Of a DNA stretch of 52,980 bases, positions 4,955-51,494 are shown piece after piece. The notes below the pieces were generated by a model. The model worked only from the letters and a program-made list of their open reading frames with translations, was not told the origin of the DNA and searched no databases. Position 1 is the stretch's first letter. Each line of letters begins with the position of its first letter. The translations under genes and the position numbers were made by a program. Source of the DNA: Desulfobacterales bacterium (GTDB taxonomy: Bacteria; Desulfobacterota; Desulfobacteria; Desulfobacterales; JAHEIW01); the NCBI GenBank assembly GCA_030601425.1, contig JAUVTR010000001.1, positions 1 to 52,980 of the forward strand, read 5' to 3'.

Positions 4955-5003
4955 TCCTGGGTTCTGGCATCTGGCTGCTGGTCTCTGGCTGCTTGTTCCC
5001 CGT
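4955..5003. repeat. In-phase heptad tract, NNCTGGC dialect
   Basis: tcctggg ttctggc atctggc tgctggt ctctggc tgcttgt tccccgt: 7 consecutive heptads upstream of the 83-aa ORF. Confidence 0.75.
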
Positions 5004-5068: not shown

Positions 5069-5320
5069 ATGACCATTCACTCTCATAATTTTGTGGAAAC
5101 TTACAAAGGCCTGGTGGGTTTTGGTGCAGATCGAAATACAGATGAAAACACGGTCATATACTATCTTCAGAAATTTTCGGATGACCGGCTGATGAAAACG
5201 ATCATAAAACGCCTGCCAGACGAGGAGTTATCAGAGATATTTTTATTGATGACCCGGCTTCTAAAAAACCATCTCACCAGTTCCGAGTACCACCAAATCT
5301 TCTTAAAAGAGGAACCTTAA
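5069..5320 (+). CDS. Hypothetical 83-aa protein
   Basis: ORF with AAGGAG 9 nt upstream of the ATG. I recognise no family. It is flanked on both sides by heptad-periodic non-coding tracts. Confidence 0.5.
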   Translation: MTIHSHNFVETYKGLVGFGADRNTDENTVIYYLQKFSDDRLMKTIIKRLPDEELSEIFLLMTRLLKNHLTSSEYHQIFLKEEP

Positions 5321-5324
5321 GCTC

Positions 5325-5506
5325 GTTACTGGCTTCTCGTCACTGGCAACTACTTGATACAAAAAGCCAGCTGCCCATTCGTTAAAAGCTAGTGGCAGAC
5401 GGCCCGCCGTAAGAAGAAAGCAGTAAGCTGCAAGGAATCAGAAACCAGTATCCTGGAGCTAAAAGCCAAAGACAAGGTGCCAGAAGCAAGTGACAAACAC
5501 AGGAGG
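5325..5506. repeat. Spacer built of 26 in-phase heptads (CACTGGC / GCCAGAA dialects)
   Basis: Cutting 5325-5506 into 7-mers puts G at position 1 in 16 of 26 units (gttactg gcttctc gtcactg gcaacta ... gccagaa gcaagtg). The 3' part (5435-5503) is the complement type of 4955-5003. Confidence 0.75.
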
Positions 5507-5600
5507 GGGGACGTGCTAACTAAAAAACAGTTGGTCCGATATGCAGATGTGCTGATATGTCGGCTGTAATGAATCGGTTTTTTGCAAAGACGCGAAATTA

Positions 5601-8871: not shown

Positions 8872-9046
8872 AGGTTTCAGGTTTCGGGTGTCAGGCGTCA
8901 GGTAAACAGACGACAGAGGTCAGAGGACAGAGGACAGAAAACAGAAGATACAGTTGTCAGAATTGACAGTGCTGAAACCTGAACACTGAAACCTGACACC
9001 TGAAACCTCCTTATTCCTGACACCTGACACCCGAAACCTAAAACCT
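8872..9046. repeat. Long heptad-periodic hairpin element A (GGTTTCA/GGTGTCA plus GACAGAG dialects)
   Basis: 8875-8951 holds 11 in-phase heptads ending in CAG(G). 8970-9046 holds about 11 heptads of the complementary CTGA type. The outer arms 8872-8902 and 9016-9046 pair at 29 of 31 positions. Confidence 0.9.
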
Positions 9047-9266
9047 AATTTTTGCTGAAACCTGAAGCCATAATAAAGGCATATTAAACTTTCGTTCCGG
9101 CAAGCGTTTCGGAGACGAGCAAAACCGCTATCAGGCGAGAGATGATGGTATTAAAAGACGGTCTATTGAGTATAACCACATCTCCATTATTTGCAATAAA
9201 AAACACCTTGTGCATTTGATCAATTTTAGGTTGTCCAATCTGCGGTTATACGGTATAGGGCCGTCA

Positions 9267-10985: not shown

Positions 10986-11150
10986 TGTCAGGGTTCAGAG
11001 TTCAGAGGACAGAAGTCAGAGGTCAGAAAACAGAGGTCAGATGACAGAAGACAGATGGTAAGAACTGTAGGATGGAGCACCTTTTCTGACGTCTGTATCT
11101 TCTGTTTTCTGACATCTGTACTCTGTCCTCTGACACCTGACACCTAAAAC
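10985..11150. repeat. Heptad-periodic hairpin element B (GTCAGAG/GACAGAA dialect)
   Basis: Ten exact-phase heptads at 10987-11056. The reverse-complement arm is 11086-11150, about 80% complementary with one heptad indel. The loop is 11057-11085. It starts on the last base of the recJ stop codon. Confidence 0.9.
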
Positions 11151-11297
11151 GCTGGCACCTGTTTCCTGAAATTGCTGTCATCCAGCAAAAAACTTTAGGT
11201 ATATGTCGGGCGAATATTTTGCTTGCAAACAGGCGTGTTACCCATTATGATGCCACCACAATTCCGGTACTAATCATTTCAACCAGAAGGTGAAACC

Positions 11298-14253: not shown

Positions 14254-14370
14254 AGTGCCTAAAATGAACTAAAATGAGCTAAAGTGCCTAAAGTTAAGGT
14301 GTCGCTTCGCTCCATCTTTTTAAATAAAAAAGACAGAATTCCTTAACTTTAGGCATTTTAGATCACTTTT
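14254..14370. repeat. Hairpin element C (GCCTAAAAT dialect) with a conserved core
   Basis: Arms are 14254-14299 and 14341-14370, whose inner 15 bp (tgcctaaagttaagg / ccttaactttaggca) are perfect. The core 14300-14340 is gtcgcttcgctccatctttttaaataaaaaagacagaatt. Confidence 0.85.
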
Positions 14371-17910: not shown

Positions 17911-18131
17911 AAATCACTCGTTTCAAAATTGAATTTAGCTTGAAAAATTAAAGTTTAAATAAAGATCAATCATTTGTGAGGGCAAATGGGCAAGACTTCT
18001 ATTTATACCATAAATGAGATTTTTTTTCGATGCTCGATTTTCTGCTAAAAGACGAAGGCGCATAAACGGATTAAAAGCTAGCATGCGAGCATTTTAAGAA
18101 GCCCATAACGAAACTATTGCGCATTAGATAA

Positions 18132-18209
18132 CGAGAACGAGGACGACGACGAGTACGAAGCGAGAAGGAACGTTGTCTAACCTCGTATTCGTCGTCGTCC
18201 TCGTCCTCG
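18132..18209. repeat. Hairpin element D (GAGGACGAC dialect)
   Basis: 18132-18160 pairs with 18181-18209 at 26 of 29 positions, with a 20-nt loop. Lies 25 nt downstream of the guaB stop. Confidence 0.85.
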
Positions 18210-18233
18210 AGAATGGCATTTTTGAGATGGGTT

Positions 18234-20588: not shown

Positions 20589-22433
20589 TTAGTCGTCGTT
20601 TAATTTCTCTTGCAAGTTCTCGCGCAAAATTTCGCCAAAAGAGGATGTAGCGGGCCTTATATTATTCGCATAGTCGCTGAGCAGGTTTTGTTCATCCTCA
20701 ATTTCGAGTCGTTTGATTGAAAGACCAATGCGCCTTTCTTCAGTGTTGATGTTCATGACTCTGGAAGTAATGACATCGCCCACCTTAAATTTTTCCGTCG
20801 GTGATTTTATTTTATCTTTGCTGATCTCAGAGATATGTACAAGGCCTTCAATCCCTTCTTCCAGCTCAACAAAGACTCCGAAATCCGTCAGGTTGGTGAT
20901 GGTTCCGGTTATTTCTTTGCCAACTTCGTACCGTTCGGACACCGACTGCCATGGATCATTCTGTAACTGCTTGATGCCCAGGGAAAACCGCTCGTTGTTT
21001 TTTTCAATATCTAACACGATAGCCTGGACAACATCGCCTTTTTTATACAGCTCAGAGGGGTGTTTAATCCGTTTTGTCCAGGAAATATCGGAAATATGAA
21101 CCAGCCCGTCAATGCCCTCATCAATACCGATAAACAACCCAAAATCCGTAATGTTTTTTATTTTCCCTTCAATGGTGGTACCGATCGGGTATTTTCCGCT
21201 GATCACATCCCATGGGTTCGGAACAACCTGTTTCATCCCCAGAGAAATCCGACGGCTTTCGGGTTTTATATCCAGCACAACAGCTTCCACCTCATCTCCG
21301 ACAGACACCACCTTGGATGGATGCCGAATTTTGCGTGTCCAAGACATTTCGGACACGTGGATGAGTCCCTCGATGCCCTCTTCAAGCTCTATAAATGCAC
21401 CGTAATCCGTCAGGCTGACGACCTTGCCCGTCACACGGGAACCAACGGCGTATTTTTCAGCAGCCGTGGTCCACGGATCTTCGGCAAGCTGTTTCATTCC
21501 CAATGAGACTCTTTCGTTTTCCAAGTCCAAATTTAAGATTTTAACGGTAATATCATCGCCGATTGAAAAAAGCTCTGAGGGATGCTTCACCCGTCCCCAT
21601 GATATATCGGTAATGTGAAGCAGTCCGTCAACACCGCCGAGATCCACAAATACGCCATACTCGGTTATGTTTTTAACGGCGCCTTCAACAACCTTGCCTT
21701 CTTCGATATTGGCCAGGGTGGCGGTACGTTTTTCGTCGAGTTCTTTCTCTAAAATGGCCCGCCGGGAAAGAACAATATTACTGCGTTTACGGTTGTATTT
21801 TAGAATCTTGAAATCAAATTCTTTGCCGACCATTTCATCAAGATTTCGAATCGGTCGCAAATCCGCCTGGGAGCCGGGTAAAAACGCCGGAACGCCGATG
21901 TCCACTGAAAATCCACCCTTGACCCGGTTGGTAATCGTTCCTTTGACGGTACCTTCTTCATCATAGGACGTCTTAATCGATTCCCAGATTTTTATATTGG
22001 CGGCTTTATCCTTGGATAACAGGACGCGCTCCTCTTCATCGTCCCACCATTCAACCATAACCTCGATGGCATCTCCCACTTTGGCCGTGATATTGCCGTT
22101 TTCATCTAAAAATTCTTGCATCCGTACTTGGCCTTCAGATTTGTATCCGATGTCAATCAGAACGTGATCTTTATCTATCGAAATAATCCTGCCGGTGACC
22201 ACTTCTCCCTCGGCAAAGCGCTTAAAACTTTCTTCATACATGTCCATTACGCTTTCCATGCTGTCACCCGCATCTTTTGGAATATCTTCGGATGAGCCAT
22301 CCGGTGATTCCTGGGCTTTGACTTCTTCCTTTTGCGGTTTACTTTCGGTTTTCAATTGCTCAGCAGCCATGTCATCAGTAATTTCAGTTTGCTCTTCATT
22401 TTGAGTTTCATCCTTGTTTGTTTCATCAACCAT
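20589..22433 (-). CDS. rpsA: 30S ribosomal protein S1
   Basis: 614 aa. Six S1 repeats (G.V..I...G.FV.L..G..GL.H.SE). An acidic, low-complexity extension of about 75 aa sits at the N-terminus. Confidence 0.95.
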   Translation of the reverse strand: MVDETNKDETQNEEQTEITDDMAAEQLKTESKPQKEEVKAQESPDGSSEDIPKDAGDSMESVMDMYEESFKRFAEGEVVTGRIISIDKDHVLIDIGYKSEGQVRMQEFLDENGNITAKVGDAIEVMVEWWDDEEERVLLSKDKAANIKIWESIKTSYDEEGTVKGTITNRVKGGFSVDIGVPAFLPGSQADLRPIRNLDEMVGKEFDFKILKYNRKRSNIVLSRRAILEKELDEKRTATLANIEEGKVVEGAVKNITEYGVFVDLGGVDGLLHITDISWGRVKHPSELFSIGDDITVKILNLDLENERVSLGMKQLAEDPWTTAAEKYAVGSRVTGKVVSLTDYGAFIELEEGIEGLIHVSEMSWTRKIRHPSKVVSVGDEVEAVVLDIKPESRRISLGMKQVVPNPWDVISGKYPIGTTIEGKIKNITDFGLFIGIDEGIDGLVHISDISWTKRIKHPSELYKKGDVVQAIVLDIEKNNERFSLGIKQLQNDPWQSVSERYEVGKEITGTITNLTDFGVFVELEEGIEGLVHISEISKDKIKSPTEKFKVGDVITSRVMNINTEERRIGLSIKRLEIEDEQNLLSDYANNIRPATSSFGEILRENLQEKLNDD

Positions 22434-22600
22434 GAATAATTAGTCCCCCTTAGCCTATTTTATTGCAGCCAGATAGAGCCCTGGCGCAACCTCCTATCTT
22501 TAACAGAATGGCGAAAAAATGCAATCCTTTATTTAATTTTTGGTAAAATCCGTGGATCAGAACTATTGAGATTAGGAATAGCAACTATTCTCCAATTTAT

Positions 22601-23266
22601 TTATAGCTTTTTTTCGATGTACGACAGCATTAAATCAACCACCTTCTCAACAGATAAACCGGTGGAATCAATCCGAATCGCGTCATCAGCCGGTTTTAGA
22701 GGCGCCAGGCTCCGCGTGCTGTCATTTGTGTCGCGCTTTTTCATATCCTGCGCAACCTCTTCCAGAGACTGGCTTGATTTAGATTCGAGCTCTTGATACC
22801 TACGCAGGGCTCGGGTTTTTGATGATGCATCCAAAAAAAATTTAACATCAGCCTCGGGGAAGACGATGGTTCCCATATCGCGTCCTTCAAAAACCGCCGC
22901 TTTCTTTTGGCCAATATCTCTTTGCACTTCAAGCAAATAATCCCTCACAATCGATTTAGCCGAAACTGCCGATGCCAGCATGCTAATTTCCGGAGTGCGT
23001 ATAGGGTCTGAAATGTCGACCCCATCTGAATAGAGCCGCAACCCCGTCCCTTTCGATTCAAAACCAAGCTGAATTAGATGACAAAGTTTCTGCAACTTGG
23101 CTTCATTTTCCGGGTTGATTCCGCGACGTTTAACCTCATAAGCCACCCCGCGATAAAGGGCGCCGGTATTGATATAACGGTATCCCAGCCGGTCGGCGAG
23201 CGCCCGGCTCACGGTTGTTTTTCCGGCCCCGGCAGGCCCATCAATGGTGATCAATAGTTTCTTCAT
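22601..23266 (-). CDS. cmk: Cytidylate kinase
   Basis: 221 aa. ITIDGPAGAGKTT P-loop and typical CMP-binding region. Confidence 0.93.
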   Translation of the reverse strand: MKKLLITIDGPAGAGKTTVSRALADRLGYRYINTGALYRGVAYEVKRRGINPENEAKLQKLCHLIQLGFESKGTGLRLYSDGVDISDPIRTPEISMLASAVSAKSIVRDYLLEVQRDIGQKKAAVFEGRDMGTIVFPEADVKFFLDASSKTRALRRYQELESKSSQSLEEVAQDMKKRDTNDSTRSLAPLKPADDAIRIDSTGLSVEKVVDLMLSYIEKKL

Positions 23267-23270
23267 AGTC

Positions 23271-23417
23271 CTGGTGTCAGGTGTCAGGTGTCAGGTTTCA
23301 GGCCACTGGCTACTAGTTACTGCTACCCGTCACTGGTTTCCGGCAGCCGCAGAGGGCTGCCCTTCTCCGGTTTTCATCTATCTTCTGACTTCTGACTTCT
23401 GTCTTCTGATTTCTGAT
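23271..23417. repeat. Element E: the whole cmk-hisC spacer as 21 in-phase heptads
   Basis: ctggtgt caggtgt caggtgt caggttt caggcca ctggcta ctagtta ctgctac ccgtcac ... ttctgac ttctgac ttctgtc ttctgat ttctgat. The left GGTGTCA arm is 23273-23302 and the right TTCTGAC arm is 23381-23416. A central GGCAGCC/GGCTGCC hairpin lies at 23342-23361. Confidence 0.9.
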
Positions 23418-23420
23418 CGC

Positions 23421-24512
23421 TTAAATTACCTGTTCAAACGCTTCTAAAAAACGAATATTTTCCTCATGTTTTCCAATATTTACCCGGATATATTCCGAAT
23501 ATCCGTAAGATGTCAATGAGCGTACGATCACCCCTTGTTTAAGAAGATTTTCGAAAACCTCATCCGCGGTTCTCCCATCTCCAACCTTGACCATAAAAAA
23601 ATTGGCCTGGGATCGAATATAAGGCATCTCCAGCTTTTCCAGAACGCCATATATAAATTCGAGCTCGTTGTGAACCAGATCGACAGTCTTTTGCAGGAAT
23701 TCAGTATCGTTAAGCGCAGCGGACGCTGCCACCTGGGCAAGTGTATTGACATTAAACGGTTGTCTGACCCTGTGAAGGAGTTCGGCCAAAGCCGACGGCA
23801 TCACGCCGTAGCCCACACGCAGTCCCGCTAAACCGAAAGCTTTGGAGAACGTGCGTATCCCCACAATGGCTTTATCGGTTCTCAAAAATTCAAAACTGTT
23901 AGCGCAATTCGATTCTCTGACAAATTCGATATAGGCTTCATCCAACACAATGACGATTTGGGGCGGAATCTCTGCGATAAATTCTTCAAAATCATGTCTT
24001 GATATAATAGTTCCGGTCGGATTGTGGGGAACATTTATAAAGATCATGCGGGTTTTCGGGCTTATTTTCCGTAACATGCCTGCCAGATTCGTTTCAAACG
24101 ATTTTAGGGGAACCCAGACCGGAATAGCACCGGAGGTAAGAATCGAAATTTCATAAAATAGAAAGGACGGTTGCGGTAAAATAACCTCGTCATCAGGTCT
24201 CAACAAAACCCGCGCCAGCAAAGCGATGATATCGTCGGATCCGTTTCCTAAAACAATATTTTCCGGAGCAATGTTATTCTTTTCAGCAATAGATTGAATC
24301 AGTTCGTAGCCACCGGCGTCCGGATACCGATGCAGTTTTGCTATTGCCCGGCGGATGGCTCCAACAGCCATCGGTGACGGTCCCAATGGGTTTTCATTGG
24401 ACGCCAGCTTAATGGGATTATCGATCCCATATTCCCGCTGAACTTCCTCGACAGGCTTCCCGGGAACATAGGGTTTAATCTTTGAGAAATAATCCGGGAT
24501 TTTCAGTTTCAT
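23421..24512 (-). CDS. hisC: Histidinol-phosphate aminotransferase
   Basis: 363 aa class-II aminotransferase. LASNENPLGPSP, NPNNPTG-like PHNPTG and RTFSKAFGLAGLRVGY (PLP lysine). Confidence 0.9.
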   Translation of the reverse strand: MKLKIPDYFSKIKPYVPGKPVEEVQREYGIDNPIKLASNENPLGPSPMAVGAIRRAIAKLHRYPDAGGYELIQSIAEKNNIAPENIVLGNGSDDIIALLARVLLRPDDEVILPQPSFLFYEISILTSGAIPVWVPLKSFETNLAGMLRKISPKTRMIFINVPHNPTGTIISRHDFEEFIAEIPPQIVIVLDEAYIEFVRESNCANSFEFLRTDKAIVGIRTFSKAFGLAGLRVGYGVMPSALAELLHRVRQPFNVNTLAQVAASAALNDTEFLQKTVDLVHNELEFIYGVLEKLEMPYIRSQANFFMVKVGDGRTADEVFENLLKQGVIVRSLTSYGYSEYIRVNIGKHEENIRFLEAFEQVI

Positions 24513-24576
24513 TTTAGGTATAAAGCGTTAATATTACAAGTTAATACATTTTTGAGATTAAAAATATAATTTAAAA

Positions 24577-24662
24577 AATTACCACGAAATCACGAAAACA
24601 TAAAAGCACGAAATATTCTTTCTTTTTCGTGTTTTCGTCATTTCGCGCTTTCGTGGTAAATT
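24577..24662. repeat. Hairpin element F (CACGAAA dialect)
   Basis: aattaccacgaaatcacgaaaacataaaagcacgaaa (24577-24613) versus tttcgtgttttcgtcatttcgcgctttcgtggtaaatt (24625-24662). About 30 of 38 positions are complementary, with an 11-nt loop. Confidence 0.88.
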
Positions 24663-24714
24663 ACTTTTCGATTTATTAAGTATAGATTCGGGTACAGAAA
24701 TTATTCGATCTTTG

Positions 24715-25254
24715 TTAAGTTGCCATTGCGGCTTTTTGGCCCTCTTCCAGTGCCTTCATGTTAAGCGGGATCAGTTTTTCTTTACTGGCAAATTTGACTT
24801 TTACCGATTCACGCAACCGCTCAAAGTCGACCACCTGGCTGCGACTGACGAATGCCGCCAGTGCCACGATATTGGCAGCTTTAACATTTCCCAATTCCTT
24901 GGCAATTTCGATAATCGGAACTTTAAGAACGTCCACATCGTCCCGACCGGCATCAATCGAAATGATGGAACTATTGATAAAGATGATGCCGCCGGATTTT
25001 ACAGCCGGTGCGAATTTTTCAAGAGAAGGGCGATTCATCGCTACCAGATGTTTCGGATTCCGAATAATCGGAGAACCGATAGGCCGGTCGCTGATCACCA
25101 CCGTACAATAAGCCGTACCCCCTCTCATTTCCGGCCCGTATGACGGAATCCAAACGACTTCATAGCCTTGATCCATGGCAGCCTGAGCCATAATCTGACC
25201 CATTAGCATAATTCCCTGGCCGCCGAATCCGGCGAATTGAATTTCGTTTTGCAT
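24715..25254 (-). CDS. 2-oxoacid:ferredoxin oxidoreductase, gamma subunit
   Basis: 179 aa. The GFGGQGI motif is typical of POR/KOR/VOR gamma subunits. Substrate specificity is not resolvable from sequence. Confidence 0.85.
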   Translation of the reverse strand: MQNEIQFAGFGGQGIMLMGQIMAQAAMDQGYEVVWIPSYGPEMRGGTAYCTVVISDRPIGSPIIRNPKHLVAMNRPSLEKFAPAVKSGGIIFINSSIISIDAGRDDVDVLKVPIIEIAKELGNVKAANIVALAAFVSRSQVVDFERLRESVKVKFASKEKLIPLNMKALEEGQKAAMAT

Positions 25255-25285
25255 TATACCTCCTCCCCTAACCCGGACGAGCCGG

Positions 25286-25432
25286 TTGGAGCGAAGCAGA
25301 AATCCCGGTTTATCGGGGAATTGAAAATTGAAGATTTCAAATTGAATATTTATGGATGTCGCTTCGCTCCGTCCTTTTTAAAATGGAAAGAATTCCTTAA
25401 ATATTCAATATTCAATCGAAAATATTCAATCG
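25286..25432. repeat. Hairpin element G (ATTCAAT dialect) with the conserved core
   Basis: Arms are 25318-25355 and 25395-25432, and the core is 25356-25394 (gtcgcttcgctccgtcctttttaaaatggaaagaattcc). An extra upstream ggagcgaagc (25288-25297) is exactly complementary to 25361-25370. Confidence 0.85.
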
Positions 25433-25458
25433 TTACAAGACAGTAAAGAGCAATGGAT

Positions 25459-26238
25459 TTAACCATTTTTTGCGGATGACGAACTCGTTGCGCTCTCCTC
25501 TTCTTCAGGTCTTTTAAAAACGCCTAAAGAATAATAAGGAAGCATTTTTTCTTCAGCCCACTTGATTGCATCCAGCGGCGTCATCCCCCAGTTTGTTGGG
25601 CAGGTGCTGACCAATTCGACAAAACTAAAACACGTATTTTCTATTTGATAGGTAAAAGCCTTTTTGATAGCCTTTTTCGCTTTGTTGATATATTTGGGAT
25701 TTAGCAGTGTCTGACGGGTTATATAGGCCGGCGTCTGAAGTGCGGCCAGCATTTCAGACATTTTTATCGGCATCCCGGTATCCAGAATTTTGCGCCCAAA
25801 GGGTGAGGTGGTGGTCCGCTGATCCGGCATGGTTGTGGGCGCCATCTGACCGCCGGTCATACCATAGACTGCGTTATTGATAAAAATAACCGTAAACTTT
25901 TCCCCCCGGTTGGCTGCATGCACAATTTCACCCATCCCGATGCTGGCCAGATCCCCGTCACCCTGATAGGTAAATACAACCAGATCAGGGCGCACACGTT
26001 TAATGCCGGTCGCCATCGCCGGCGCGCGACCGTGGGCGGCTTCCTGAAAGTCGAAGGTGAAGTAGTTATACATCAAAACAGCACACCCCACTGGCGCAAT
26101 ACCAACGGTTCGGCCGCGGATGTCGAGTTCATCGATCACTTCCGCCACGAGTCGATGCGCCACACCATGCGTACAGCCCGGGCAATAGTGAGTGATCGTA
26201 TCGGCCAGGGCTTCGGGTTTCTGAAATGTTTTCCCCAT
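25459..26238 (-). CDS. 2-oxoacid:ferredoxin oxidoreductase, beta (TPP-binding) subunit
   Basis: 259 aa. CPGCTHG, the GDGD..IG TPP motif and NN.VYGMTGGQ. Confidence 0.9.
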   Translation of the reverse strand: MGKTFQKPEALADTITHYCPGCTHGVAHRLVAEVIDELDIRGRTVGIAPVGCAVLMYNYFTFDFQEAAHGRAPAMATGIKRVRPDLVVFTYQGDGDLASIGMGEIVHAANRGEKFTVIFINNAVYGMTGGQMAPTTMPDQRTTTSPFGRKILDTGMPIKMSEMLAALQTPAYITRQTLLNPKYINKAKKAIKKAFTYQIENTCFSFVELVSTCPTNWGMTPLDAIKWAEEKMLPYYSLGVFKRPEEEESATSSSSAKNG

Positions 26239-26257
26239 TTATTTTCTCCTATATTTG

Positions 26258-26366
26258 GTCGATTTGTTGAATGGTTAACTGGTTAATTAGTTTGATGAAA
26301 AAAGCACTGACGGTTAAACCTAATAACTATTCAACCCATCGACTATTTGACTATTTAACTATTTTG
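26258..26366. repeat. Hairpin element H (GTTAACT/CTATTTA dialect)
   Basis: 26258-26290 pairs with 26320-26343 at 21 of 24 positions with a 9-nt bulge. It is followed by ctatttga ctatttaa ctatttt, which overlaps the stop of the alpha-subunit gene. Confidence 0.75.
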
Positions 26367-27421
26367 CGAACTTCTTCCATGACCTCTTCGGGAGTGGGAA
26401 CTTCACCGCCACATTTGCCGTACCAATGCACCGGGCGCCGGCCGGAAACACTGCGTTCAACATCTTCCACCATCTGTCCCATGGACATTTCCACGCACAG
26501 CACAGCCCGGCAGCTTTGCCTGTCAACCGCAGCGTAGATGGCAGTCTTTGGAAACGGAAATACGGTCTGGGGTCTGATCATACCCACTTCAAATCCCTGC
26601 TCTTTGAGATTATCAATGGCAGTTCGACATACCCGGCTCATGGTGCCGTAGCTGACGATAAGCACGCGATAGTCCCCATCGACATTGTAGGCTTCATAGC
26701 GCACCTCTTCCCGTTCCATCTGCTCATACTTGGCTTTTAACATCAGATTGTGAGAATTGAGTTCCTCGGGATCCAGATAGAGCGTTTTAACCAGGTTGCG
26801 CCGCTTGCGATTGCGCGTCGCCATGCCGTTGGTGGCCCAATCATCTTTGTTGGTGGGTTCGGCTTTAAGCGAATCCGGGAATTCCACCGGTTCCATCATC
26901 TGACCGATAAGCCCGTCTCCCAGGATCATTACCGGATTGCGGTATTTCTCGGCCAGAGCAAATGCGCCCATCATCATCTCAACGGCTTCCTGAACACTGG
27001 CCGGTGCCATGACCAGCAGTTTATAGTCTCCGTGCCCGCCCCCTTTTACCGATTGCATATAGTCGGCCTGAGAAGGAAGGATACCACCCAATCCCGGCCC
27101 GCCGCGCATGATGTTGACAAACACCGCCGGGCACTGGGCCGCGGTGATATAGCTGATGCCTTCACTCATCAAACTGATGCCGGGGCTGGAAGAGGTTGTA
27201 AACACCCGCTCCCCGCAGGCAGCGGCGCCAAAGATCATATATGATACGGCCACTTCGCTTTCACCCTGCAAAAACACACCGCCTGCTTCCGGTAATCGGC
27301 GGGAGAGATATTCAGCAACTTCAGATTGAGGCGTGATTGGATAGGCAAAATAATTCAAACAGCCTGCCCGAATAGCGGCCTCTCCAATGGCTTCATTGCC
27401 TTTCATCAATACTTTCCCCAT
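26351..27421 (-). CDS. 2-oxoacid:ferredoxin oxidoreductase, alpha subunit
   Basis: 356 aa. KGNEAIGEAAIRAGC..YPITPQSE is the N-terminus typical of KorA/VorB-type subunits. Confidence 0.9.
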   Translation of the reverse strand: MGKVLMKGNEAIGEAAIRAGCLNYFAYPITPQSEVAEYLSRRLPEAGGVFLQGESEVAVSYMIFGAAACGERVFTTSSSPGISLMSEGISYITAAQCPAVFVNIMRGGPGLGGILPSQADYMQSVKGGGHGDYKLLVMAPASVQEAVEMMMGAFALAEKYRNPVMILGDGLIGQMMEPVEFPDSLKAEPTNKDDWATNGMATRNRKRRNLVKTLYLDPEELNSHNLMLKAKYEQMEREEVRYEAYNVDGDYRVLIVSYGTMSRVCRTAIDNLKEQGFEVGMIRPQTVFPFPKTAIYAAVDRQSCRAVLCVEMSMGQMVEDVERSVSGRRPVHWYGKCGGEVPTPEEVMEEVRKIVK

Positions 27422-27433
27422 AATATCCTCCGA

Positions 27434-27667
27434 TTATTTTTTCGCTGCCGCTTCTTCTTCAATTTCTCTGATGGTTATGGCGACATCCGGGCACATCGTG
27501 CAGCATAGTGCGCAAAAAATGCAATCTTCAGGACGCGCCTGATATGCCGGAAAATAGCCTTTGGTGTTAACATTATTGGAAATTTCTAAAACGTTCTTAG
27601 GGCAAACGGCTACACACAACCCGCAGCCTTTACATTGATCCTCGTCAACTGAATGCTGATATGTCAT
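27434..27667 (-). CDS. 2-oxoacid:ferredoxin oxidoreductase, delta (2x[4Fe-4S]) subunit
   Basis: 77 aa with two CxxCxxCxxxCP-type motifs (CKGCGLCVAVCP, CIFCALCCTMCP). Lies 12 nt upstream of the alpha subunit. Confidence 0.85.
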   Translation of the reverse strand: MTYQHSVDEDQCKGCGLCVAVCPKNVLEISNNVNTKGYFPAYQARPEDCIFCALCCTMCPDVAITIREIEEEAAAKK

Positions 27668-27750
27668 AGATCAAAACTCCTTCACCGAGCTTTAAAACCG
27701 ATTTTTATTTTATCTAAAATAATATAATTTACTTGCATATTTGGATTCAA

Positions 27751-27834
27751 CCACGGAGTTCACGAAGGCCACAAAGTGAGGAATAAAAAATCTCTGGCCT
27801 TAATCTTTGTGACCTTTGTGCCTTTGTGGTGAAC
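27751..27834. repeat. Hairpin element I (CACAAAG/CACGAAG dialect)
   Basis: The left arm contains gttcacgaaggccacaaagtgagg. The right arm is ctttgtgacctttgtgcctttgtggtgaac. This is an imperfect inverted repeat. Confidence 0.7.
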
Positions 27835-27896
27835 AAAATCAATAGCTACTTTTTTGCCGGATCCATAATAGCGCCAGAAGCTTTAAATCGCAACCA

Positions 27897-28610
27897 TCAT
27901 CCCGATGGGCTCTGTTTTTCAAATGGGAGCGCCTTTTTCCACGGCGGAACCAGCTGTCTTTCTATCGACAAAACCGGGCAGGAAAATCGCCGCACATCGA
28001 TCGCGGGCAATAATTCGCGGGCAACAGTAATAAATTCAAGCGCTAAACCACTTTGTTCGGATAATCCGTTAACAAATTCATAGCCGTCATAAATATCATC
28101 CGCTGAGGTTTCATCAATTAAATTAGCGTTGCCGATAATGCCATCGACAGCCAACTTGGCGGCCTGCTCGATCTCTTTGCGGACTTTGAGACAGCCTTCA
28201 AATGTTTCCGTAAAAGGTCTTAACGGATTGACCACCTGCAAAACCCTTATGAGTCTGTTTTTAAAAGCATCTTCAAGTGTCGCCAGGATGGTCGCGCCAG
28301 CATCATCACCGCCGACATCCAACAGCGTCAACTCAGCGGGCTGGCGTATCATTCCGGCAACAAGCGGACTTAGAATTGGAAGATCGGCATGCAGGTATTG
28401 ATCCGGCGGGAGCACAACCTCAATTCCCATTTCTGAAAGCGGCCCTTTGGCTTCACGCGTTCGAAAATACGGGTTAACCAGATCAAGATCGGCAATGCGC
28501 ACATCCACCCCGGCGCGTTTGCGGTGCACAGCCAGGTTAATGGACACTTCGGTCTTACCGCTGCCGTAGTTACCGACGACAACGACAATTCCTGTTAAAT
28601 TAATTTCCAC
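27897..28610 (-). CDS. P-loop NTPase (SIMIBI-like, possibly a GTPase) of unknown role
   Basis: 237 aa with a GTG start. Walker A GNYGSGKT, DVGG (DxxG-like) and NLID (NKxD-like). Lies upstream of and co-oriented with the oxidoreductase operon. Confidence 0.6.
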   Translation of the reverse strand: MEINLTGIVVVVGNYGSGKTEVSINLAVHRKRAGVDVRIADLDLVNPYFRTREAKGPLSEMGIEVVLPPDQYLHADLPILSPLVAGMIRQPAELTLLDVGGDDAGATILATLEDAFKNRLIRVLQVVNPLRPFTETFEGCLKVRKEIEQAAKLAVDGIIGNANLIDETSADDIYDGYEFVNGLSEQSGLALEFITVARELLPAIDVRRFSCPVLSIERQLVPPWKKALPFEKQSPSG

Positions 28611-28820: not shown

Positions 28821-29112
28821 AGTGCCTACAAAAAAAAGTGAGCTAAAATTCAAAATGATCTAAAATGCCTAAAATTAATGAATTCTGCCCGTCGAGAGCC
28901 TCTGGGTCGAACGACTGAGTCGAACGATCCATTTTATTTAAAAAGATGGAGCATGGCGACTCCATAACCCTGGCCCAGACCCTGATTACAGATTTAAGGG
29001 GTTACTCGAAATCCTCCACGTTAACTGAAGTAATCGCATGATAGTATTTTATAGCGCGAGGGCGGGCTTTAGGCACTTTAGATCATTTTAGGCATTTTAG
29101 GCATTTCAGGCA
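28821..29112. repeat. Element J (GCCTAAAAT dialect) enclosing a 191-nt interior with the inverted conserved core
   Basis: 28853-28875 (aaaatgatctaaaatgcctaaaa) pairs with 29067-29089 (ctttaggcactttagatcatttt) at 21 of 23 positions. The interior 28881-28961 carries the reverse complement of the C/G core, with a 38-nt insertion. Confidence 0.8.
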
Positions 29113-30328: not shown

Positions 30329-30460
30329 CCAGAGGTCAGATTACAGAGGACAGAGGACAGCAGTCAGATGACAGAGAACATGCGTTAGAAAATGGTGCCA
30401 GCATTCAGTCTACTGTCTTCTGTTATCTGTTTTCTGACTTCTGACATCTGACATCTGACA
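30329..30460. repeat. Heptad-periodic hairpin element K (GTCAGAG/GACAGAG dialect)
   Basis: The left arm 30329-30380 starts on the base after the namZ stop. The right arm 30408-30460 is about 70-75% complementary in heptad register. Confidence 0.85.
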
Positions 30461-30478: not shown

Positions 30479-31120
30479 GTGGAAACGGATAATCCGGAAT
30501 GGAAGCGAATGCGCTTTAAAAAAAACAAGGTCTGGCTGTCAGTTGATTCTGTCGGAAATCCGGTTGAACAGAACGGAAAGGTTTTAATCAAATATCAGCT
30601 GGATCAGCCGCATGAATATTGGGTTCGCAAAAGCAACATAAAACCCCTGGATACAAAGCCGGTGAAAACTCAACGGTCAGAAAAGAACACAGCGGCGCGT
30701 AAGCCGGGCGGCCGGGAAGAAATCTGCATATTTTCCGACGGCGCTTCATCCGGAAATCCCGGTCCATCTGGAATCGGAGTCGTGCTGCGCTTTGGCGAAC
30801 ATGAAAAAGAAATATCAGAATATATCGGCATGGCAACCAATAATATCGCCGAGCTTAAAGCGATCCAGGCGGGATTGCAGGCCATAAAAAATACCGATCT
30901 TCCGGTACGGATTTTCACTGACAGCAATTATGCACACGGGGTCCTGGCACTTGGCTGGAAAGTTAGGGCAAACAGGGAAATGGTGGAATCTATAAAAAAA
31001 ACAATGGCAAAATTTAAAAATCTAAAGATCGTTAAGGTAAAAGGCCACTCCGGCGATGAAGGCAATGAGCGAGCGGATTTTTTGGCCACATCCGCAATCA
31101 AACATGCCCCCAAAAAGTAA
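30479..31120 (+). CDS. rnhA: Ribonuclease HI with an N-terminal extension of about 85 aa
   Basis: The C-terminal 130 aa carry the RNase H fold motifs (DGASSGNPGPSG, NNIAELKA, TDSNY, HSGDEGNERAD). GTG start with GGGGAG 8 nt upstream; an alternative ATG is at 30509. Confidence 0.85.
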   Translation: METDNPEWKRMRFKKNKVWLSVDSVGNPVEQNGKVLIKYQLDQPHEYWVRKSNIKPLDTKPVKTQRSEKNTAARKPGGREEICIFSDGASSGNPGPSGIGVVLRFGEHEKEISEYIGMATNNIAELKAIQAGLQAIKNTDLPVRIFTDSNYAHGVLALGWKVRANREMVESIKKTMAKFKNLKIVKVKGHSGDEGNERADFLATSAIKHAPKK

Positions 31121-41256: not shown

Positions 41257-41350
41257 TAGTTAAATGGTCAATTAGTTGATTCGTTAAATAGTTTAAAATG
41301 GATTGAATCCTTTGACTAATTGACAATTCGACGAATTAACTAATTGACTA
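41257..41350. repeat. Hairpin element M (GTCAATTAG/TTAACGA dialect)
   Basis: Centred on ggattgaatcc (41301-41311). 41275-41324 is the reverse complement of 51346-51396, about 90% identical over roughly 50 nt. Confidence 0.88.
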
Positions 41351-41416
41351 AAACTGCGAGCCGCTGAACCCAGGACCCTGATCCCACAGGATAAATACAA
41401 CGACAATAATTGATTG

Positions 41417-49325: not shown

Positions 49326-49350
49326 CTTGAAGCTATCTCAAAAAAACAAA

Positions 49351-49510
49351 TGAGCTAAAGCTGAAAAGCGGAAATAATTCATTTTATTTGATACTCACGC
49401 AAAGCCGCTAAGCTCGCAAAGAATAATGATTTAAACAATTAAAAAACTCTTGGCGTCTTTGCGCCTTTGCGTGAGGCCTAAAGTATTCGTTCATTTTAGG
49501 CACTTTTTTT
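49351..49510. repeat. Nested element P: outer GCCTAAAAT-type arms, inner CGCAAAG hairpin
   Basis: The inner 49394-49422 pairs with 49447-49475 at about 24 of 29 positions. The outer right arm gttcattttaggcact (49489-49504) is the exact reverse complement of 14254-14269. A T-run at 49504-49510 follows. Confidence 0.85.
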
Positions 49511-49521
49511 AAAGGTGATTT

Positions 49522-50970: not shown

Positions 50971-50984
50971 CTCTGGTTTCAGAG

Positions 50985-51013
50985 TCCGCAGATTTCGCAG
51001 ATTTCCGCAGATA
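50985..51013. repeat. Solo CGCAGAT arm
   Basis: In tccgcagatttcgcagatttccgcagata, the first 20 nt are identical to the reverse complement of 43641-43660 in element O. It starts 15 nt after the gap stop. Confidence 0.85.
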
Positions 51014-51016
51014 ATA

Positions 51017-51302
51017 AAGCTGTTAAGCTAGTACCTGAATTTTGCACGAGTCGGAGGCTTTCATGTGCAAGGCACTTAAGGGCGAAGCCATAGTGAACTA
51101 TTGCGAGCCCTTAATAACGCAGCAGATGGAAGCCTCCGGCTCGCCCGCAGGGTGAAAAGTAATGAGATAAAATGATTTTCATCCATTATACCTGATAGGT
51201 ATTTTGGTTTACTTCGCTGGTTTGCTTAACCTGTTGTCATTAAAAATAATCTTAACTTCTCATTAATTTTCATGAAAGATCCAGGTAGTAAGCTGTTGAG
51301 CT
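51017..51302. repeat. MITE-like 286-bp block with imperfect terminal repeats
   Basis: aagctgttaagct-agtacctg (51017-51037) versus caggtagt-aagctgttgagct (51282-51302). I see no target-site duplication. Confidence 0.45.
51047..51143 (+). ncRNA. Candidate structured RNA (unknown family)
   Basis: An 18-bp closing helix 51047-51064 / 51126-51143 has 16 Watson-Crick pairs plus 2 T-G positions that pair only in the plus sense. Inner hairpins are gtgc-aag-gcac and ttaagggc(51076-83)/gcccttaa(51107-14). Confidence 0.45.
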
Positions 51303-51339
51303 GATATGCCGATAAGATGTTGGCACCTGGTTAAATGTT

Positions 51340-51467
51340 CAAATAGTCAATTAGTCAGAGGATTCAATCCGTTTTAAAACTATTTAACGATTCGACGATT
51401 TAACCAATTAACTTATCATTTTACTAATTGACTATTCGATTAATTGACCATTTAACGAATTAACGAT
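51340..51467. repeat. Hairpin element N (GTCAATTAG/TTAACGA dialect), the partner copy of M
   Basis: Centred on ggattcaatcc (51360-51370). It equals the reverse complement of element M with an internal insertion of about 44 nt. It ends 27 nt before the tpiA ATG. Confidence 0.88.
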
Positions 51468-51494
51468 GCCCCACCGGGCGAGAGGACGATAAAA

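Follow-up and report, generated by a model that had tools for sequence, protein, structure and literature searches.

Repeat-armed hairpins between the genes of an oxidoreductase-hisC-cmk string in a Desulfobacterales bacterium, probable insertions of palindromic repeat elements

Hairpins in the junctions of the gene string

The window analysed here is a stretch of 52,980 nucleotides (GCA_030601425.1, contig JAUVTR010000001.1, positions 1 to 52,980) from an uncultured, sulfate-reducing Desulfobacterales bacterium of cold-seep and marine-sediment metagenomes. On its minus strand, a P-loop gene (27897-28610) is followed by the delta (2x[4Fe-4S], 27434-27667), alpha (VorB-like, 26351-27421; NF005507, 512 bits against a cut-off of 399), beta (thiamine pyrophosphate-binding, 25459-26238) and gamma (24715-25254) genes of a four-subunit 2-oxoacid:ferredoxin oxidoreductase, and then by hisC (23421-24512), cmk (22601-23266) and rpsA (20589-22433). 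Five junctions of this string hold a hairpin whose arms are imperfect tandem repeats of 7-9 nt, and the repeat unit differs from one hairpin to the next. These hairpins, elements I, H, G, F and E in gene order, are the subject of this report, and we interpret them as probable insertions of palindromic repeat elements.

The elements lie in the P-loop/delta (229 nt, I), alpha/beta (112 nt, H), beta/gamma (204 nt, G), gamma/hisC (202 nt, F) and hisC/cmk (154 nt, E) junctions. The original prediction, made by reading the letters of this DNA, had placed a hairpin of a different unit in each of them, and both the repeat arrays and the folds (z -2.5 to -6.5) bear this out. The 12-nt delta/alpha junction (TCGGAGGATATT, 27422-27433, minus strand) contains a Shine-Dalgarno (SD) site only and was rightly called free of such elements, but it is not alone in this: the 167-nt cmk/rpsA junction (22434-22600, minus strand) also lacks a repeat hairpin (z -0.56). 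That spacer is equally long in relatives (median 161 nt) and is probably the rpsA leader or promoter region.

Arrays were located with Tandem Repeats Finder, an inverted-repeat finder returned F and G directly, and RNA folds were computed in the mRNA sense and compared with 200 dinucleotide-preserving shuffles. Stem and loop together measure 81-179 nt across the five elements, all given here on the minus strand. Element I (27750-27834) has CACAAAG-type arms, 5' CACCACAAAGGCACAAAGGTCACAAAG and 3' CACTTTGTGGCCTTCGTGAACTCCGTGG, with an array of period 8-9 at 27805-27828, and folds at -28.0 kcal/mol (z -3.7); with an AT-rich tail it forms an insertion-like unit, the I block (27688-27887), bounded by a 9-nt direct repeat, TTTAAAGCT, at 27887-27879 and 27696-27688. 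Element H (26258-26343) is a hairpin GTCGATGGGTTGAATAGTTA...TAACCATTCAACAAATCGAC with GTTAAC/TTGAAT-type units; the 6-nt direct repeat CAAATA borders it at 26349-26344 and 26257-26252, and its junction folds at -22.2 kcal/mol (z -3.4). H had been described as overlapping the alpha stop codon, which holds for a tandem array of three AAATAGTY units (26341-26364, period 8) that crosses the TAG at 26351-26353 but not for the predicted stem, which begins 8 nt past it. Element G (25268-25446) is a full copy of a dispersed element with ATTGAATATT-type arms (arrays at 25319-25350 and 25400-25416, period 7), a conserved core AAGGAATTCTTTCCATTTTAAAAAGGACGGAGCGAAGCGACATCC at 25351-25404 (covariance model R1, 68.9 bits, E 3e-12) and a terminal hairpin CCGGCTCGTCCGGGTTAG; it folds at -26.8 kcal/mol (z -3.0), with an alternative hairpin at -35.4 kcal/mol (z -2.5). 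Element F (24579-24659), with CACGAAA-type arms (24583-24614 and 24624-24655, period 8), folds at -31.6 kcal/mol (z -6.5) into a long, AU-rich stem of 30 pairs and is the only one of the five followed by a T6 tract (24578-24573). Element E occupies the whole hisC/cmk junction, five TCAGAAG units in its 5' arm pairing with four CCTGACA units in its 3' arm around a GC-rich centre (23273-23302 and 23382-23416, period 7), and folds at -43.1 kcal/mol (z -2.5); it is present in the junction as predicted, though at 23270-23418 and not within 24577-27834, the range to which it had been assigned.

By predicted fold, then, the hairpins are stable, and they sit within a conserved co-directional gene string, as had been claimed. 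The mRNA strand nevertheless holds no advantage: sense minus antisense minimum free energies are +7.6 (E), +0.2 (F), -4.8 (G), +7.1 (H) and +6.8 kcal/mol (I), meaning that E, H and I fold worse in the mRNA sense by 7-8 kcal/mol, that F is equal and that only G is better, by 5; over 13 elements of the window the better-folding strand splits 7 to 6. SD sites outside the stems are kept by all downstream cistrons except hisC, for which no SD is recognisable and which no longer overlaps gamma by 4 nt as it does in several relatives. Provided that the libraries concerned are RNA, metatranscriptome contigs cross the whole of H to connect beta with alpha (25721-26438 and 25813-26383), and others (27818-28049) extend from the P-loop gene as far as the 5' arm of I; these RNA runs are represented by assembled contigs only, which the repeats break at E and G. 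Since H is co-transcribed with alpha and beta, an effect on the mRNA of the REP/BIME type, or a decoupling of translation, is possible.

Occupancy of the spacers in relatives and strains

A comparison of junctions in relatives had been proposed as a check, and junction lengths were compared in 80 syntenic loci. Gene order is conserved in 59 Desulfobacterales loci, and the P-loop-delta-alpha-beta-gamma order is also kept in Myxococcota, Zixibacteria, Ignavibacteria and Clostridia. Outside Desulfobacterales the orthologous operons have short or overlapping junctions (0-20 nt, with medians of 2 nt for alpha/beta and 1 nt for beta/gamma). Within Desulfobacterales the lengths run from overlaps (-11, -4, -1) to more than 400 nt without phylogenetic order, many of the long junctions hold hairpins of another dialect, that is, with another repeat unit (L002, L014, L019, L021, L022, L034, L037 and L044, for example), and the hisC/cmk spacer carries different dialects in different lineages. 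Once the element is subtracted from the junctions of the window, the spacer that is left (5 nt for E, 25 for G, 19 for H and 38 for the I block) matches the lengths in relatives. In a Myxococcales outgroup locus (L066:8395-8524), one arm of a long hairpin is a near-perfect (CGAGCA)n hexamer array, so that repeat-armed hairpins are not strictly limited to Desulfobacterales.

Occupancy of orthologous sites is sporadic even among close relatives. Related contigs in runs X8 and X14 are without H: they join 26254 to 26346, inside the CAAATA repeat, leaving the empty site TCAAAATATAGGAG. Window 23896-28345 is matched at 99.8-100% identity by L200 (GCA_049188685.1), an assembly made independently, save for 27695-27883, where the 189-nt stretch containing I is replaced by 98 unrelated bases (L200:463-560), and the breakpoints of this swap coincide with the 9-nt direct repeat of the I block. 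The L200 allele has a perfect 17-bp hairpin of its own (GGGGTTGTCAAAAAAACG...TTTTTTTTGACAACCCC), its junction folds at -47.8 kcal/mol and it has no counterpart elsewhere in the window; it forms another hairpin element, unrelated to I, at this AT-rich target. The two alleles coexist in run X1, whose contig graph forks at 27884, one branch being the I allele at depth 9.65 and the other the L200 allele at depth 6.3.

Elements H and I have orthologues of similar fold energy at the same sites in L001 and L039, and are therefore older. Conserved, compensated and broken pairs are mixed in the 2-3 sequences of orthologous I and H; in the closest relative, 22 of 73 pairs of the I junction and 7 of 26 pairs of H are broken. 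The best species-representative relative has an alpha subunit of 91% identity. The depth of contig words relative to the flanks in four metagenomes, which is a sum over the whole community and not the copy number in this genome, rises about 100x over E, 50-100x over G and about 10x over F; there is no rise over the low-copy elements H and I. In every run examined, metagenome unitigs stop at E (within 23244-23454) and at G (within 25143-25564), which makes such repeats a likely cause of fragmented metagenome-assembled genomes (MAGs) in the clade. Several of the related contigs were retrieved at a length of only 2-7 kb.

A dispersed family and its conserved core

Element G and an element at 14254-14369 share a centre of about 55 nt composed of AAGGAATTCT, an AT-rich stretch and GGAGCGAAGCGAC. 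Searched as the exact pattern AAGGAATTCT-N12-40-GGAGCGAAGC in species-representative genomes, this core occurs in at least 119 genome stretches, nearly all of them from Desulfobacterales/Desulfobacteraceae MAGs of sediments and seeps; the few matches in other phyla fall within long ORFs and look like chance. The statements on cores in this paragraph hold among the matches listed. The genomes include Eth-SRB1, Eth-SRB2 and Desulfosarcina, several with multiple copies. In 107 usable cores the 45-nt flanks are mutually complementary in 84%, with a mean duplex energy of -27.2 kcal/mol versus -12.0 kcal/mol for a shuffled partner, and they are periodic at 7-10 nt, mostly 7, 9 or 10. The arms fall into about 15 clusters, 8 of them with at least two members, and include CTAAAGT/GAGCTAAAG, ATTGAATATT, GAATGTCGAAT, CGAACATCGAACGTC and TGCCTAAAAT. 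The core-bearing elements are multi-copy, and their orientation is independent of transcription: 19 cores lie co-directional in the sense orientation, 33 antisense, 19 between convergent and 16 between divergent genes.

The families also have defined ends. Copies of the commonest core subfamily, about 330 nt long, keep more than 90% identity from one genome to another and stop at sharp boundaries, beyond which the flanks are unrelated; identity at this level across species-level MAGs suggests recent spread or a function. A small hairpin CCTGGTCC..GGGCCAGG bounds both ends of this unit in direct orientation (L089, L091-L095, L125, L127 and L134, among many). The G-type copies of L081, L149, L114, L121 and L180 have the same two ends as the copy in the window, which is how G was placed at 25268-25446, and loose ends of metagenome contigs at 25267/8 and 25430/1 agree with these boundaries. 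At several unrelated loci (window 25261-25270; L081, L149, L114) elements of the G type end in CCGGGTT(A/T)G, followed by a GGAG-type SD and a downstream ATG; the G-type end may contribute to ribosome-binding sites, or prefer insertion beside them.

In the window, covariance model R1 of the core matches G (68.9 bits), 14294-14350 (72.6 bits) and 28871-28967 (27.7 bits), and these three, which also have complementary arms, are the core-bearing elements; the core is absent from E, F, H and I by the same model. The match at 28871-28967, part of the element at 28831-29112, is split by a 55-nt insert with tandem units CTGAGTCGAACGA, which resembles either an internal expansion or a nested insertion. 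A small stem conserved within the core was considered and given no weight: 79.9% of cells are paired versus 74.4% in shuffles, the covariation score is a modest 0.213 versus 0.132, at the variable positions pairing is missing in 10 to 18 of the 37 sequences, and for the dominant subfamily the fold energy is often 0 kcal/mol. Carriage of the core by phages was likewise set aside, with a single match in 2.9 million viral contigs. The cores at 25358-25370 and 14301-14313 contain GCGAAGC, the sequence of an unusually stable DNA mini-hairpin and a lead toward a possible single-stranded DNA intermediate. Rfam 15 gave no match at the gathering threshold in the window and five core-bearing loci, and by E-value only chance-level matches in 22400-28000, at F (E 0.3 for NsiR8 and 0.5 for a plant miRNA). 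In the literature searched, no description was found of the family, of the core sequence or of such elements in sulfate reducers, the one relevant paper being that on the TAACTGA repeats of Beggiatoaceae (PMC4679880).

The gene string is not special in carrying such hairpins. A repeat-armed hairpin is found in 14 of the 27 gaps of at least 100 nt in the window, the remaining gaps having ordinary hairpins or none; the gene string contributes 5 of 6 long gaps against 9 of 21 elsewhere, and this excess is not significant (one-sided hypergeometric p ~0.10). The 14 elements total about 1.9 kb, or 3.7% of the window, and every long ungapped hairpin returned by a stem finder is intergenic. A strict detector counts 11.3 periodic-armed hairpins per 100 kb here, 1.2 in other Desulfobacterales loci and 0.9 in outgroups: the element family is common in this genome and is found across Desulfobacterales, to a lesser degree in other members. 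Besides the five and those at 14254-14369 and 28831-29112, the elements of the window lie at 8872-9066, 10986-11161, 18131-18210, 30330-30460, 41265-41351, 49395-49475 and 51328-51461. Short-word BLAST among them groups E with 8872-9066, 10986-11161 and 30330-30460 in one dialect family, 14254, 28831 and part of 49395 in another, and 41265 with 51328 and, distantly, H in a third; in 18131-18210 the unit variants are mirrored across the two arms.

The neighbours of these elements are housekeeping genes (recJ, manC, dnaE, guaB, recA, rapZ, gap and tpiA among them), and the occupied spacers include gap/tpiA, rapZ/EIIA, recA/ligT and dnaE/guaB. Other classically tight operons are likewise stretched by elements, gap/tpiA and rapZ/EIIA among them. 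The gap/tpiA spacer (50971-51494) is 524 nt long and holds a TCCGCAGAT array and a GC-rich hairpin as well as the element at 51328-51461, and the rapZ/EIIA spacer (49326-49521) holds a CGCAAAG-armed hairpin.

Origin of the hairpins and relation to known repeats

We propose, with a probability of about 0.75, that each of the five hairpins was inserted independently, as a copy of non-autonomous palindromic repeat elements that behave like MITEs (miniature inverted-repeat transposable elements) or REPINs and that colonise the spacers of the genome. Each element is a long inverted repeat with arms made of arrays of 7-10 nt units, the unit setting the dialect; in the large core superfamily, to which G belongs, the arms enclose AAGGAATTCT, a putative small AT-rich stem-loop and GGAGCGAAGCGAC. 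Such elements, mobile now or formerly through an enzyme encoded elsewhere, would land in AT-rich intergenic targets, spacers within operons included, where they would be tolerated because the downstream cistrons keep their own SD. Their arms might then diverge by slippage of the units and be kept in step by unit copying or by conversion within the hairpin. Once inserted they would be read through as part of a polycistronic mRNA, and it is plausible that they perturb it: they could break an ancestral translational coupling, hinder 3' exonucleases or draw double-strand RNases, and F with its U6 tract may end some transcripts ahead of hisC. Such effects would be by-products of insertion and not the reason for the presence of the elements.

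Several observations weigh against an origin by insertion. Candidate target-site duplications are recognised only at H and the I block, and for none of E, F and G; the swap of the I allele could reflect homologous recombination instead of transposition; and the depth spikes are those of a community, as said above. H and I are low-copy and retained in relatives of 91% alpha identity, where H shows one compensatory pair change that could be due to selection on structure and not to slow decay. No transposase, RAYT-like or IS200-like gene was found by Pfam among the 44 ORFs of the window, although no search was aimed at an autonomous partner.

More tentatively, the elements could belong to a superfamily of hairpin repeats, undescribed so far, that would be mobile in Desulfobacterales, among them seep bacteria and partners in ethane-oxidising consortia; the GCGAAGC-containing core would be recognised for mobilisation, perhaps as single-stranded DNA, and the arms would slip rapidly while being kept complementary by fold-back copying or conversion. 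We doubt this fuller version more than we favour it. It would explain how one core comes with many unrelated arm dialects and, if it were true, strain-level turnover of the elements within operons would give rise to variation in expression in the uncultured populations of sediments.

The original prediction saw in the hairpins a device for the fixed stoichiometry of the subunits: as selected cis-acting RNA elements they would stabilise or process segments of the mRNA, or decouple translation, and so set the proportions of HisC, Cmk and the subunits, in the manner of the REP/BIME elements of the E. coli malEFG operon. The conserved co-directional gene string, the co-transcription of H with alpha and beta, stems of -22 to -43 kcal/mol, SD sites outside the stems for all downstream cistrons save hisC, and the retention of H and I in L001 and L039 at similar energies, with one compensatory change in H, would all fit such a role. 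Yet the comparisons do not support the claim. Orthologous operons function with 0-20 nt or overlapping junctions, a strain of 99.8% identity has other sequence in place of the I block and the two alleles occur together, H is missing from related contigs, and pairs are broken in the closest relative (22/73 in the I junction, 7/26 in H). Moreover the families are dispersed in all orientations without bias, three of the five hairpins fold worse in the sense strand, and the operon is not significantly enriched in elements over the window (p ~0.10), and we consider a selected role of this kind unlikely. That some hairpins are terminators or attenuators and that the inserted blocks bring promoters, F stopping transcription before hisC-cmk and the I block promoting delta-alpha-beta-gamma, is quite unlikely too. 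Here the 30-pair stem of F with TTTTTT immediately after it speaks in favour, as do the missing SD of hisC with its lost gamma overlap and two promoter-like sites, TTGAAT-18-TATATT at 27750-27721, just past the I stem, and another at 24539-24511, before hisC. But a terminator consensus scan called none of the five hairpins and none combines a short GC-rich stem with a U-tract: the F stem is AU-rich and far longer than canonical, and E, G, H and I are without the tract. RNA contigs pass through H, and promoter-like matches number 17 where shuffles give 9.9 +/- 3.3, a modest excess.

The insertion reading also has to be set against two explanations in which the hairpin as such does not matter or does not exist. 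The 7-10 nt units might be DNA or RNA binding sites of a host protein (nucleoid-associated, of the cold-shock type or regulatory), with the inversion reflecting the mode of binding: the units are short, periodic and recur across the genome, and the intergenic heptamers of Beggiatoaceae and cyanobacteria have been discussed as possible sites of cold-shock-type proteins (PMC4679880). It is, however, the complementarity of the arms that is conserved, in 84% of the cores among the matches listed; the dialect units are wholly different (CACGAAA, ATTGAAT, CAGAGGT, CTAAAGT, CGAACAT) and have no common motif, and the arms of 18131-18210 mirror each other's unit variants, which together leave binding sites highly improbable. 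We give almost no credence to assembly artefacts or chimeric joins at repeats. Metagenome contigs do break at E and G, but the H, G and F junction sequences recur in the independent assembly L200, between 77 and 95% of the words sampled from 23200-28000 are present in each of at least 20 runs belonging to 12 studies, single contigs cross I and H, and I and H have orthologues in L001 and L039.

Hairpins inserted within operons have precedents. Correia elements (CREE/NEMIS, in Neisseria) and ERIC sequences (in Yersinia and enterobacteria) are MITE-like, 100-160 bp long, with long terminal inverted repeats (TIRs), and are inserted in operons; they are co-transcribed, their hairpins are processed by RNases, they alter the stability of flanking mRNA, sometimes supply promoters and are polymorphic in presence among strains. 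Correia elements have unique 26-bp TIRs that are not tandem repeats, an IHF site in the core and a TA target duplication. The elements described here have no known sequence relationship with either group, and their direct repeats are 6 and 9 nt. The MITE Chunjie of the deltaproteobacterium Geobacter uraniireducens is described as sitting in an operon without disrupting it; it is a single family with ordinary TIRs and a known partner family of insertion sequences. As in MITEs, our elements are short (85-330 nt), without an ORF and have complementary inverted arms; many copies with conserved ends and unrelated flanks are seen for the dominant core subfamily and the G type, not for H and I, and candidate target-site duplications that match the empty or alternative alleles are CAAATA at H and TTTAAAGCT at the I block, with none at E, F and G.

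REPs are imperfect palindromes of 20-40 bp with an unpaired GTAG or CGTC tag at one end, and their proposed roles include mRNA stabilisation and termination (PMC3733652). Like REP/BIME sequences, the elements are high-copy extragenic palindromes, often within operons and co-transcribed, with 14 intergenic elements in 53 kb and a depth of 10-100x at E, G and F; unlike them, they measure 85-330 nt, and the GTAG/CGTC tag is absent beside the stems of E, F, G, H and I, the nearest GTAG being about 15 nt upstream of I. REPINs consist of two inverted repeats and a spacer, form a long hairpin in single-stranded DNA or mRNA, occur in several flavours per genome and show compensatory changes (PMC3116915). 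In the present elements two inverted arms form a hairpin with a spacer or core between them, the centre being conserved and the arms variable, multi-unit and tandem, the reverse of the REPIN layout; and REPINs are mobilised by RAYT transposases, of which no gene was found in the window. The STRR of filamentous cyanobacteria and the TAACTGA repeats of marine Beggiatoaceae are intergenic 7-nt tandem repeats with hundreds of sets per genome, often just before start codons, and with several unit types per genome, for which a post-transcriptional role has been proposed (PMC4679880). The TAACTGA arrays are direct, with an inverted set in only 1 of 170 (PMC4679880), whereas each array described here pairs with its reverse complement as a hairpin, often around a conserved core.

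Palindromic repeats between genes have been studied in depth in Enterobacteria, Pseudomonas and Neisseria; we did not find the present family described. Its elements may mislead predictions of operons and of regulatory RNAs, and they break metagenome assemblies, as at E and G; they can also serve to tell strains apart, for instance by the two alleles of the P-loop/delta junction. A conserved core with unrelated tandem-repeat arms raises the question of how arms arise and stay complementary, and the repeated, independent invasion of the same operon spacers in different lineages amounts to an experiment of nature on the spacing and structure that an operon of several subunits can bear.

Some further features of the window deserve mention. 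An 83-aa ORF (5069-5320) without a Pfam match has a CTGGCTG heptamer array upstream (4964-4993) and a CAG/GCCAG-rich stretch downstream (5321-5520), which may be the halves of one element split by a small gene, or something different. The element at 30330-30460 lies directly upstream of a plus-strand gene (30479-31120) for an RNase H domain protein with an N-terminal extension of about 75 aa that has no domain match. The product of the P-loop gene that opens the string (237 aa, motif GNYGSGKT) has no Pfam or NCBIfam match and a weak Mrp/MinD-like match in the PDB (2ph1, E 0.007). This gene lies directly upstream of delta-alpha-beta-gamma in 80 of the 80 loci whose contig reaches past delta, from Desulfobacterales to Clostridia, and its product may be a dedicated maturation or partner ATPase of the oxidoreductase.

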